Source of the DNA: Candidatus Babelota bacterium
GTDB lineage: Bacteria > Babelota > Babeliae > Babelales > CAIQNR01
Direction of reading: 5' to 3'
NCBI GenBank assembly: GCA_965658655.1
Contig: CBFHTA010000003.1
Span: forward strand, 1,883 to 65,882
Length of the DNA stretch: 64,000 nt
The notes beneath the pieces were generated by a model. That model saw only the letters and a program-made list of their open reading frames with translations, had not been told where the DNA came from and searched no databases. The stretch's first letter is position 1, and each line of letters begins with the position of its first letter. Made by a program: the position numbers and the translations under genes. This document shows, one piece after another, positions 9,567-10,910 of this stretch.

Positions 9567-10910
9567 GTGAACAAGAAGTTACTGTTTATTCTTTTATATG
9601 CATTGAGTCAAAGTGTCACCCTTTTTGGGGCAGACTCTCCTAGCAATTTTGATGATCCTGAAATTACAGCGGCAACTGCTTTTTTAAAGCAGCAAGAAAG
9701 CATTAATCGTTTATCTAAAAGAAAAACCGAAGAAAGAAGAAGAGCAAAAAGCACATCTCCTTCAGTTACTCCACCACATTCTCCTACAAGACCTCAAATT
9801 CAAAAACACCCTTTAAGATCAGGGCCATATTCTCCTACAAGACCTGGTAGAAGAACTCCAAGTCCTTATACTTTAACTCCTCCTTCATCTAAAGAACCTA
9901 CTCCTCAAGTTGGAGGATCGCCTGAAACAATTATTGAAGAAATAGTACATTTACCTAAATCTTCTCAAAGGAGAATACGTGCCATAAGTCCCCTAATAAG
10001 GACATCTTTACCTTCTTTACAACAAGGCAGGAATGTACAAAAAGACAAAGATGAAGCGCTCCTTACTTATTTGACACAAAAGATGGCAAGTACGCCCCCT
10101 AAAAAAGAGGATATTGACACAGTCGAAATACCATCTCCAGAAGCCGTATTTGTTATATCAGGAAAACCTGACAATACGAGAACTACTAGCGTTACCCAAC
10201 GTAGCGGTGGACGCTTATCCCCAATTCATAAACTTTCCACACACGAAGAAGAAGAAGAAGTAGTAGCTAAAACTGAAAAAAAAGTTTTTGATGCAGGTCC
10301 TTACCCACCCTCAATTGATAGAACACCTGAAAGTAAAAATCTTACATTTAGGAGACGATCAAATGTAAGAAGAAATACATTTGCTCCTCTATCCTCAGGC
10401 AAGCCAGGAAAACCAGTAAGCATGTTCGACCTGCCATCTCTTTCAGAACAAATAGAAGAAGAAGCCGTGGAAGAAGTAAGAAGTATATTTGATTCTCCTA
10501 AATCTACTGGTAAAAAATCAGACATTGTTATTACAATGGGACCGATAGAAAGCGACAGCGATTCAGATAACAACGATAATGAATATGGTGCTGATATTCC
10601 TGCATGGCAAGGTGCTGCACAAAGGGCTCGCGAAGAAGCTGAACAGAGAAAAGAAGAAGAAAGAAGAGCAAGAATAATAAAAAATCATTCTTTCATTACA
10701 TTACCTAGAGCTAGAAAAGAATTACAAGAAATTACTATTTCAAAAAGAAAACCTAAAATAACCTTTGCTCCTGAAAATTCACTGGAAAAAGTTCATGAGT
10801 ATGAACCCACTTTTAACGAAATGGAAGATATGCATGGATTATTTAAAAAAAGTGAATCTGGCAAACCAGAAATATCAAAACCATGGATAGAAAGACTGGG
10901 TCAATACTAA
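9567..10910 (+). CDS. hypothetical secreted, Ser/Pro-rich low-complexity protein (GTG start)
   Basis: 447 aa with the signal MNKKLLFILLYALSQSVTLFG, a dense SP/TP cluster, an acidic SDSDSD patch and C-terminal KRKPKITFAPEN. GAGAGGT is upstream of the GTG. Confidence 0.6.
   Translation: MNKKLLFILLYALSQSVTLFGADSPSNFDDPEITAATAFLKQQESINRLSKRKTEERRRAKSTSPSVTPPHSPTRPQIQKHPLRSGPYSPTRPGRRTPSPYTLTPPSSKEPTPQVGGSPETIIEEIVHLPKSSQRRIRAISPLIRTSLPSLQQGRNVQKDKDEALLTYLTQKMASTPPKKEDIDTVEIPSPEAVFVISGKPDNTRTTSVTQRSGGRLSPIHKLSTHEEEEEVVAKTEKKVFDAGPYPPSIDRTPESKNLTFRRRSNVRRNTFAPLSSGKPGKPVSMFDLPSLSEQIEEEAVEEVRSIFDSPKSTGKKSDIVITMGPIESDSDSDNNDNEYGADIPAWQGAAQRAREEAEQRKEEERRARIIKNHSFITLPRARKELQEITISKRKPKITFAPENSLEKVHEYEPTFNEMEDMHGLFKKSESGKPEISKPWIERLGQY

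Follow-up and report, generated by a model that had tools for sequence, protein, structure and literature searches.

A PP1-docking-like motif as the predicted N-terminal anchor of a bipartite module in secreted protein families of a RING-containing bacterial island

Protein phosphatase 1 (PP1) carries out a large share of eukaryotic Ser/Thr dephosphorylation and is steered almost entirely by short docking motifs, which viruses are well known to copy. We analyzed a 64-kb stretch of bacterial DNA (37.8% G+C) from a marine plankton metagenome, part of contig CBFHTA010000003.1 of a Candidatus Babelota bacterium and called the window below, in which a first-pass annotation had pointed out PP1-docking-like motifs of the RVxF type in two secreted proteins, p447 and p195. 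Comparison with related loci suggests that this motif is the N-terminal anchor of a new bipartite module of about 30 residues, found in the secreted accessory families of a RING-containing island. Tentatively, and with rather less than even confidence, we read p447 and p195, and for the first half of the module only also p174, as fast-evolving Sec-exported accessory proteins whose conserved module would dock onto host PP1.

The clearest bacterial case of RVxF-dependent PP1 binding that we found is LpPIP (Lpg1625) of Legionella pneumophila, a PP1-interacting effector described in 2025 that has no eukaryotic homologue and recruits the host PP1 catalytic subunit (PP1c) by means of an RVxF motif that two lysines precede; the same work lists another 11 Legionella effectors with RVxF (PMC12313075). 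Compared by description, LpPIP and the module proteins are alike in being bacterial and in having an RVxF-type motif with lysines ahead of it. They differ in that LpPIP, a substrate of the Dot/Icm type IV system, is tail-anchored at its C-terminus and has only one motif, at the N-terminus, whereas the module proteins have Sec signal peptides and no tail anchor, carry M-H-G 20 residues downstream and fall into several families.

Among viruses, the P protein of respiratory syncytial virus (RSV) carries RKPLVSF, and the pneumovirus consensus R-K-P-x-V-T/S-F is functional though degenerate (PMC5847313). This consensus nearly equals RKPKITF of p447; the viral motif lies in a disordered region, and that of p447 in a predicted coil. 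Viral PP1 recruiters are made inside the host cell, so that delivery is no issue for them, and they have no M-H-G anchor. Herpes simplex virus (HSV) ICP34.5 and African swine fever virus (ASFV) DP71L are two such recruiters, which share the PPP1R15 PP1c-binding domain; this domain was not detected in the module proteins.

In eukaryotes, extended strings of the form RVxF-PhiR-PhiPhi-Phe/Arg are found in PNUTS, spinophilin, Gm and PPP1R15A/GADD34 (PMC10731240; PDB 4XPN). They resemble the module in that V-x-F/W comes after a run of basic residues and is followed by an acidic tail, by a hydrophobic pair a few residues on, at a spacing that agrees only in part, and by a contact about 19-20 residues past the core. 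They are unlike it in that the distal contact is Arg or Phe, not M-H-G; the likeness spans 12-14 columns (E 0.95), and there is no homology outside the motif. Inhibitor-2 and inhibitor-3 (Ypi1/PPP1R11) are PP1 regulators universal in eukaryotes and, like the module, show an acidic segment after an RVxF, here of the W type (KSQKW, KVEW). To the eye, GLATAHTP in one module family (family E) resembles ILATYHP of inhibitor-2, and EMxxMHG resembles NEHMG of inhibitor-3; neither likeness was supported by hhalign or by comparison with the PDB. Mimicry of these inhibitors was rejected as a candidate: hhalign gave E 0.23 and 0.31 over 5-9 columns that covered only KVEW/KVxF, and neither inhibitor-2 (IPP-2) nor inhibitor-3 (Ypi1) was matched in the PDB or in Pfam.

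The first-pass annotation had located K-R-K-P-K-I-T-F-A-P-E-N-S-L near the C-terminus of p447 and R-K-R-K-V-T-F-H-E-N-L-V in p195. Both are present as described: KRKPKITFAPENSL spans aa 393-406 of p447, exactly nt 10743-10784, and RKRKVTFHENLV spans aa 136-147 of p195 (nt 14166-14201). The two proteins had also been rightly called secreted, each starting with a Sec-type signal peptide (MNKKLLFILLYALSQSVTLFG ahead of ADS in p447, MKKLLFLSLLCITAATQA ahead of AHG in p195). Their motifs agree with the loose consensus [RK]-x(0,1)-[VI]-{P}-[FW] in the form of KITF and RKVTF, as does KKVHF of p174, a third case that the first-pass annotation had not listed, within the basic RVxF-type string KKPTKKVHF (aa 61-69, nt 6842-6868). 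A stricter, Meiselbach-type definition, [HKR][ACHKMNQRSTV]V[CHKNQRST][FW], is matched by RKVTF of p195 and KKVHF of p174 and not by PKITF of p447. Neither p447 nor p195 has a Pfam family. Among 5.8e9 proteins p195 found only itself, and p447 found only itself both in a word-indexed search of 5.8e9 proteins and in an exhaustive phmmer search of 1.84e9 representatives; looking up its exact sequence matched no contig. BLASTP of p447 against p195 was not significant, the high-scoring segment pair that contains both motifs having E = 14. Unrelated-looking as they had been called, the two do share a specific element, KITF...21...MHG in p447 and KVTF...20...MYG in p195.

Relatives were gathered by synteny, through a SerRS genome scan, a DUF58 metagenome scan and a DUF4381 protein search. 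The first two scans yielded flanking synteny, and tblastn found no relatives of p447 or p195 in their loci, the nearest genome locus, L001, stopping 480 bp inside the island; with DUF4381, 14 relatives that are 49-80% identical were obtained. In this way proteins that had remained orphans in searches of billions of sequences gained recognisable relatives. All-against-all BLASTP of the proteins encoded in the island and in a second variable place, the HU-SerRS slot, defined families A to F (Table 1), and 18 core instances were compiled; further relatives (L108, L110) were added after that compilation. As a check on population variation, two runs carrying the same strain were compared and showed zero differences; a look for RNA runs gave none.

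Alignments of the module give the consensus KVxF...E...MHG. The first part is [RK]-[VI]-x-[FW], usually with basic residues ahead and F-x-E after; a middle element, hydrophobic-x-E-[FY] or [FH]-[ST]-P, lies about 9-12 residues past the first anchor; and families A, B, D and E have the second anchor, (E-M-x-x-)M-[HY]-[G/E/K], at +19 to +21. An extension T-F-x(1,2)-E-N-[LS] that had been proposed as common to p447 and p195 survives in part, F-x-E being common in the relatives and EN not conserved. Conservation of the motif in orthologues, a check suggested at the same time, turned out favourable. KVTF of p195 becomes KIKW in the L103/L104 orthologue (TKIKW...NMYQ); KITF of p447 corresponds to KVTF (L108), VRF (L102) and RIHF (L100) in its C-terminal relatives; and TKKVHF is identical in p174 and its 53%-identical orthologue L096_isl6, in which both flanks differ. 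These last two proteins are without the M[HY] anchor. In most pairs the module is 42-54% identical against 20-32% for the rest of the protein; it is not better conserved than the rest in the families of p195 (31% vs 34%) and p174 (43% vs 55%). The p447 module is 50% identical to that of L108 (SKEKSKVTFCLEKNTVKEYKPTIEEYLYMHG) and 42% to that of L102_isl2, with 24-30% outside the module, and the N-terminal 174 aa of p447 are 35% identical to L096_isl4 (E 5e-14) and also similar to L100_isl2.

The extended signature was tested with the pattern [RK][VI]x[FW]-x(19-21)-M[HY], fixed after the data had been seen, on a set of 37 island and slot proteins (10,226 aa). It has 8 sites, in 7 of the 37 proteins, against 0.014 expected (20,000 shuffles, with at least one site in 1.4%), and none in 415,427 aa of outgroup open reading frames (ORFs), taken from unrelated loci. 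Island and slot genes are its only carriers within the lineage, and when the spacer was scanned from 0 to 59 residues every match fell at 15-23. An excess of about 600-fold across four families is far more than any reasonable correction for a post hoc pattern could remove. Leave-one-family-out profiles gave marginal but reciprocal matches at the right positions: the family A profile found family D at E 0.037 and 0.2, the hidden Markov model built from families B, D and E found the p447 module at E 0.039, and the family D profile matched L096_isl4, the p447 orthologue, at E 0.16. The pattern alone, and no profile, ties in family B. A motif that is statistically unremarkable in one genome was thus highly significant across relatives, and we consider it very likely that the module is a conserved, selected feature.

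Shuffling appears to have carried the module into at least four families that are otherwise unlike each other, where it stands at differing positions and in one protein occurs twice. Its site is often near the C-terminus (397/447, 139/195, 157/192, 172/216) and elsewhere in other carriers (53/164, 86/245, 106/236), and in L096_isl2 it is found at both 136 and 281 of 394. Varied position, spread over families and duplication are the behaviour of a partner-binding element. A secretion or translocation signal, or the chaperone-binding site of one export pathway, would likewise be common to unrelated secreted proteins of one island and could well lie so often near the C-terminus. Such a signal is nevertheless quite unlikely, given the variation in position and the double occurrence, and given that the module is missing from the RING proteins, p318, p150 and p556, which have the same signal peptides.

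In the 18 compiled cores the last position is F or W throughout, V or I occupies its position in 16 (the exceptions being A and S), and 13 have a basic residue, K or R, ahead of it. Only T, R, H, Q and K are seen at x, with no proline and no acidic or hydrophobic residue, and the relatives added later agree, with KVTF (L108), RVHF (L110_isl1) and NIRF (L110_isl2). The window proteins have strong basic runs (KRKPK, RKRK, KKPTKK); those of the relatives vary. Two other short eukaryotic motifs have to be considered here: the MAP (mitogen-activated protein)-kinase D-motif, (R/K)2-3-x(1-6)-hydrophobic-x-hydrophobic, and the monopartite nuclear localisation signal, K-K/R-x-K/R. By eye, KRKPKITF, RKRKVTF and KKPTKKVHF fit both. 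Relatives, however, often keep a single basic residue next to V/I (GRIRF, GKVKF, PKVQF), and an invariant F/W that includes W is atypical of a D-motif; we regard either identity as very improbable. The substitution pattern of the cores at V/I, x and F/W fits what has been described for the RVxF groove, for which the published rules also include basic residues ahead and a hydrophobic pair (PhiPhi) 5-8 residues downstream (PMC10731240). The hydrophobic-x-E-[FY] element, at +5 to +12, overlaps the published PhiPhi spacing only partly (PMC10731240).

A module profile compared with the PDB gave 4 hits at E<=10, one of them the PP1-bound GADD34 peptide KARKVRFSEKVTV (4XPN_B, E 0.95), and in hhalign the module core aligned with the RVxF sites of GADD34 (P 7.5e-4) and PNUTS (P 9e-3). 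The alignment to GADD34 takes in only 12-13 residues around RVxF, the PPP1R15/ICP34.5 PP1c-binding domain had no Pfam match, and Pfam searches with full proteins and module segments found no family. At the level of sequence these results show an RVxF-like context, not homology. In a single-sequence AlphaFold2 (AF2) model of p447 the predicted local distance difference test (pLDDT) averages 56, and the module lies in a coil with pLDDT<50, flanked by helices 380-387 and 419-425, as a linear motif might. Host PP1 is a credible candidate target. Were it the partner, V/I and F/W of the first anchor would occupy the RVxF groove on the catalytic subunit of host PP1, in the way of eukaryotic PP1 regulators, viral PP1 recruiters and LpPIP, the downstream segment of the module would add PP1 contacts, and the proteins would recruit, retarget or inhibit host PP1. 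We infer all three elements of this reading, namely the module as a docking element, proteins that reach the eukaryotic cytosol, and PP1 as the partner; the proteins are candidates for, not established members of, the class of PP1-interacting proteins.

Several observations weigh against a PP1-docking role. The p447 core, PKITF, has I for V and P at -2 and fits the loosest consensus only, some family members have degenerate cores (QARF, PSRF, GIRF), and the p195 motif lies inside a predicted helix (117-151, pLDDT 59-85 in a single-sequence AF2 model). Within the window alone there is no significant enrichment of the motif in secreted proteins, which the first-pass annotation had proposed to look for: 6 distinct sites were found in 8 family-less signal-peptide proteins against 2.79 in shuffled sequences (P = 0.063), falling to 4 sites against 2.23 expected (P = 0.19) when p640, which proved to be a conserved protein, is left out. 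Controls with permuted order came out nearly equal (BVXF 5 vs VBXF 4, FVXB 4 and a third order 3). For the chance rate of RVxF its frequency in the window was used, as the 'one third' figures that came up in the literature were all unrelated. The similarities from the PDB and hhalign comparisons extend over few residues and lack database-wide significance; they are also circular in part, since RVxF peptides are what a profile that holds the RVxF consensus will find. The E-M-x-x-M-H-G anchor had no counterpart in the PP1 regulators tested by Pfam, PDB and hhalign comparison. Delivery is a further point. The module carriers show only Sec signal peptides, a periplasmic domain in the window's YidC points to an envelope of two membranes, and Sec export to the periplasm of such an envelope is not enough to bring a protein to a host; the window showed no secretion machinery.

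On the other side, the RING protein of the island has a eukaryote-type E3 ligase domain, which in a bacterium suggests manipulation of host ubiquitination. Its RING finger scores above the Pfam thresholds (zf-RING_UBOX 28.3 bits, cut-off 25.2; zf-C3HC4 21.3, cut-off 21) and is the best hint in the window that the exported proteins act on a eukaryotic cell. A eukaryotic target cell is plausible because RING-finger proteins share the island, and the source bacterium is marine and probably eukaryote-associated. A literature search on Dependentiae effectors gave nothing relevant.

A functionless, degenerate RVxF that arose by chance in two orphan proteins rich in lysine would account for the absence of enrichment, for homologue searches that returned only self and for the insignificant BLASTP between p447 and p195. 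The loose consensus has matches in 21 of 77 non-overlapping window genes, so that a match to it is weak on its own. Against chance stand the conservation of the motif in orthologues and paralogues from at least eight related metagenomic lineages, the excess of the bipartite signature at a fixed spacing, and its absence from the outgroup ORFs. Assembly duplicates are excluded as a source of this conservation by flanking genes that are 49-88% identical in the relatives. Chance is for these reasons an explanation to which we give hardly any credence.

A different and serious objection accepts that the module is real and selected but gives it a partner other than PP1, such as another host protein with a similar groove or the co-encoded RING ligase, as adaptor or substrate, or makes it a small folding unit in envelope proteins, with a coincidental likeness to RVxF. 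The middle element and E-M-x-x-M-H-G equal the core in conservation and match no known PP1 regulator, RVxF-like strings are common in the window, some members have no basic or V/I residue, only Sec export is documented, and the module always co-occurs with RING genes in the island. The substitutions that are allowed (V/I, F/W, a polar or basic x and a basic residue at -1) are, however, those imposed by the PP1 groove, for which a different partner would give no particular reason, and the profile comparisons fall on genuine RVxF sites. We hold another partner to be nearly as probable as PP1.

Returning to PP1 as the partner, a bolder form of the proposal would make the module a portable 'RVxF-x20-MHG' cassette, grafted onto at least four to six unrelated families beside RING ligases in a hypervariable effector island next to the DUF58/DUF4381 operon, that captures PP1 self-contained and with high affinity; the M-H-G helix would contact the PP1 surface or active-site metals in no known eukaryotic way, and host PP1 would be sent to several places or substrates at once. 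We think this unlikely. If the module does bind PP1, PP1 hijacking would reach uncultured bacteria living with marine protists, a docking motif could be a mobile cassette across several effector families, and the new second anchor could teach about PP1 surfaces.

The remaining features proposed for p447 fared differently. Its SP/TP clustering is real, with 16 [ST]P sites against 8.1+-2.4 expected and 14-18 in the family A orthologues; that these sites are targets of host kinases is speculation. RRNTFAPL (aa 268-275, nt 10368-10391, + strand) had been taken for a degenerate second copy of the motif, a claim that does not hold: N occupies the V/I position, and there is no M[HY] at +19-21. As a PP1 site it was rejected, being conserved neither in L096_isl4, where it aligns to KPRSMFNY, nor in L100_isl2; TFAP is one of 9 repeated 4-mers in the repeat-rich p447. 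Family A also shares P-x-S-M-F-[DN], at aa 284-288 of p447 (10416-10430), twice in L096_isl4 (L096 13492-14799) and in L100 11346-12530, which may be another linear motif. Foldseek comparison of the p195 model with PDB structures turned up no match below E 0.2.

The genes that encode module proteins lie at two insertions into a conserved gene order. In the relatives found through SerRS the core order is PutP, TatD, HU, SerRS, DUF58, DUF4381, PPOX-like, p640, SecD, and in L002 (62% SerRS identity) it runs uninterrupted through DUF4381-PPOX-p640-SecD, with neither the island nor HemW there. Relative to L002 the window has p195 between HU and SerRS, and HemW plus the five island genes between DUF4381 and PPOX; the island and HemW (4889-6103, opposite strand) together fill this latter interval. 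The final gene of the island, p447, runs convergent to the DUF4381 gene. With other gene content the island also occurs in L096, L098, L100, L101, L102, L108 and L110, and the contigs found through DUF4381 share one architecture, in which DUF4381 is followed by a convergent block of 2-7 signal-peptide genes, often with 1-2 RING proteins, and then, where the contig is long enough, by HemW, PPOX and p640. The HU-SerRS slot (window 13565-14447) is empty in L002, L003, L100 and L105; in L001 and L096 it holds truncated genes of 107-120 aa without the module, the full version elsewhere having 184-195 aa. Both slots, DUF4381/HemW and HU/SerRS, are hypervariable, differing between relatives whose flanking genes are 64-97% identical, and both insertions are missing in the more distant L002 and L003.

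Table 1. Features of the window, related RING genes, protein families and module instances. Positions are those of the window unless a locus is named.
Feature	Position	Strand	Description
Variable island	6193-10910	+	Five same-strand signal-peptide genes: p150, p174, RING protein, p318, p447
p150	6193-6645	+	150 aa; island signal-peptide gene without module
p174	6662-7186	+	174 aa; exported, N-terminal export signal; family C
RING protein	7518-8399	+	Context gene; signal peptide, RING finger aa 73-128 (nt 7734-7901), hydrophobic C-terminal region
p318	8586-9542	+	318 aa; island signal-peptide gene without module
p447	9567-10910	+	ORF, GTG start, 447 aa; Sec-exported, Ser/Thr/Pro-rich, mostly disordered; family A
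p447 bipartite module	10740-10838	+	aa 392-424, SKRKPKITFAPENSLEKVHEYEPTFNEMEDMHG
p447 RVxF-like core K-I-T-F	10755-10766	+	aa 397-400; aligns with KVTF, VRF, RIHF of relatives
p447 second anchor M-H-G	10830-10838	+	aa 422-424, 21 residues past core Phe
p195	13761-14348	+	ORF, 195 aa; Sec-exported; family B; variable HU-SerRS slot
p195 bipartite module	14166-14255	+	aa 136-165, RKRKVTFHENLVTESKHDKWTQEDKTPMYG; core KVTF 14175-14186, anchor MYG 14247-14255
p556	18866-20536	+	556 aa; secreted; without module
p640	2429-4351	-	640 aa; signal peptide, Pro/His-rich termini
RING relatives	L096 14965-16275; L098 3057-4415; L102 2229-2870, 3690-4463		One or two RINGs
Family A			p447, L096_isl4, L100_isl2; Ser/Thr-Pro-rich N-terminal halves; E 5e-14 to 3e-5
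Family A, C-terminal only			L102_isl2, L108; similar to p447 at C-terminus only
Family B			p195, L103/L104 slot gene (orthologue); 32% identity, E 6e-15
Family C			p174, L096_isl6; 53% identity
Family D			L098_isl2, L100_isl1, L101_isl1, L110_isl1
Family E			L096_isl2, L101_isl2, L098_isl1
Family F			L096_isl1, L110_isl2
p447 module			KRKPKITFAPENSLEKVHEYEPTFNEMEDMHG
L108 module			KEKSKVTFCLEKNTVKEYKPTIEEYLYMHG
L102_isl2 module			PLTVRFSPEPNERNTYSPTFDEYRSMHG
L101_isl1 module			NRKVTFKEPLEEIREFIMDQDEMEKMHK
L100_isl1 module			APKVQFEENPVVEVLEFSMDPKEMEAMHG
L098_isl2 module			PQARFSEDPILEEIIFKLNPEEMAIMHE
L110_isl1 module			RRVHFGEDAVREFVANPLEQAAMHA
L096_isl2 module			GRIRFNETVGLATAHTPGFAASSATMHG; present twice
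L101_isl2 module			GKVKFGTVTVVTAFTPDLAESSALMHE
L098_isl1 module			SKVTFNQKTKIKEVHSPRHLKQMEIMHS
L103 module			QTKIKWNNTVEKYDDDGADRSNMYQ

The record of the nearest locus, L001 (JBLICC010000016.1), is titled as a metagenome-assembled genome of 'Alteromonas naphthalenivorans', and its genes are 83-97% identical to those of the window. In comparisons with the PDB, EF-G and RpoA of the window have no proteobacterial affinity; the label of L001 looks wrong, or the bin chimeric.

The secreted RING proteins form a family of their own, with a signal peptide, one or two RINGs and a hydrophobic, Gly/Ala-rich C-terminal region, which is kept inside the variable island. Nearly all island proteins, in the window and in L096-L110, start with M(N)KK-L-L, and their mature N-termini begin with A-D or A-E followed by an acidic stretch. 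This shared acidic N-terminus could be a signal-peptidase preference or a shared sorting feature.

Two further exported proteins of the window have relatives of their own. p640, orphan-looking at first, has 32-38% identical homologues by the DUF58/DUF4381 operons of L002, L022, L023, L033 and L035 and, judged by this synteny, is a conserved member of that neighbourhood. Its RVxF matches, KRVWW and RVWF, look like chance, and KRVWW is KKQYW in the L002 homologue. p556 combines a Lys/Glu-rich coiled region with a conserved zinc-ribbon-like stretch, C-P-V-C-G...P-C, and has fast-evolving orthologues (31-37% identity) beside PutP in L001 (1336-2814) and L100 (1206-2858). Elsewhere in the window, TrmD (tRNA m1G37 methyltransferase) is fused to a second S-adenosylmethionine (SAM)-dependent RNA methyltransferase domain (Pfam Methyltrn_RNA_4) in one 399-aa protein (62707-63906, - strand).

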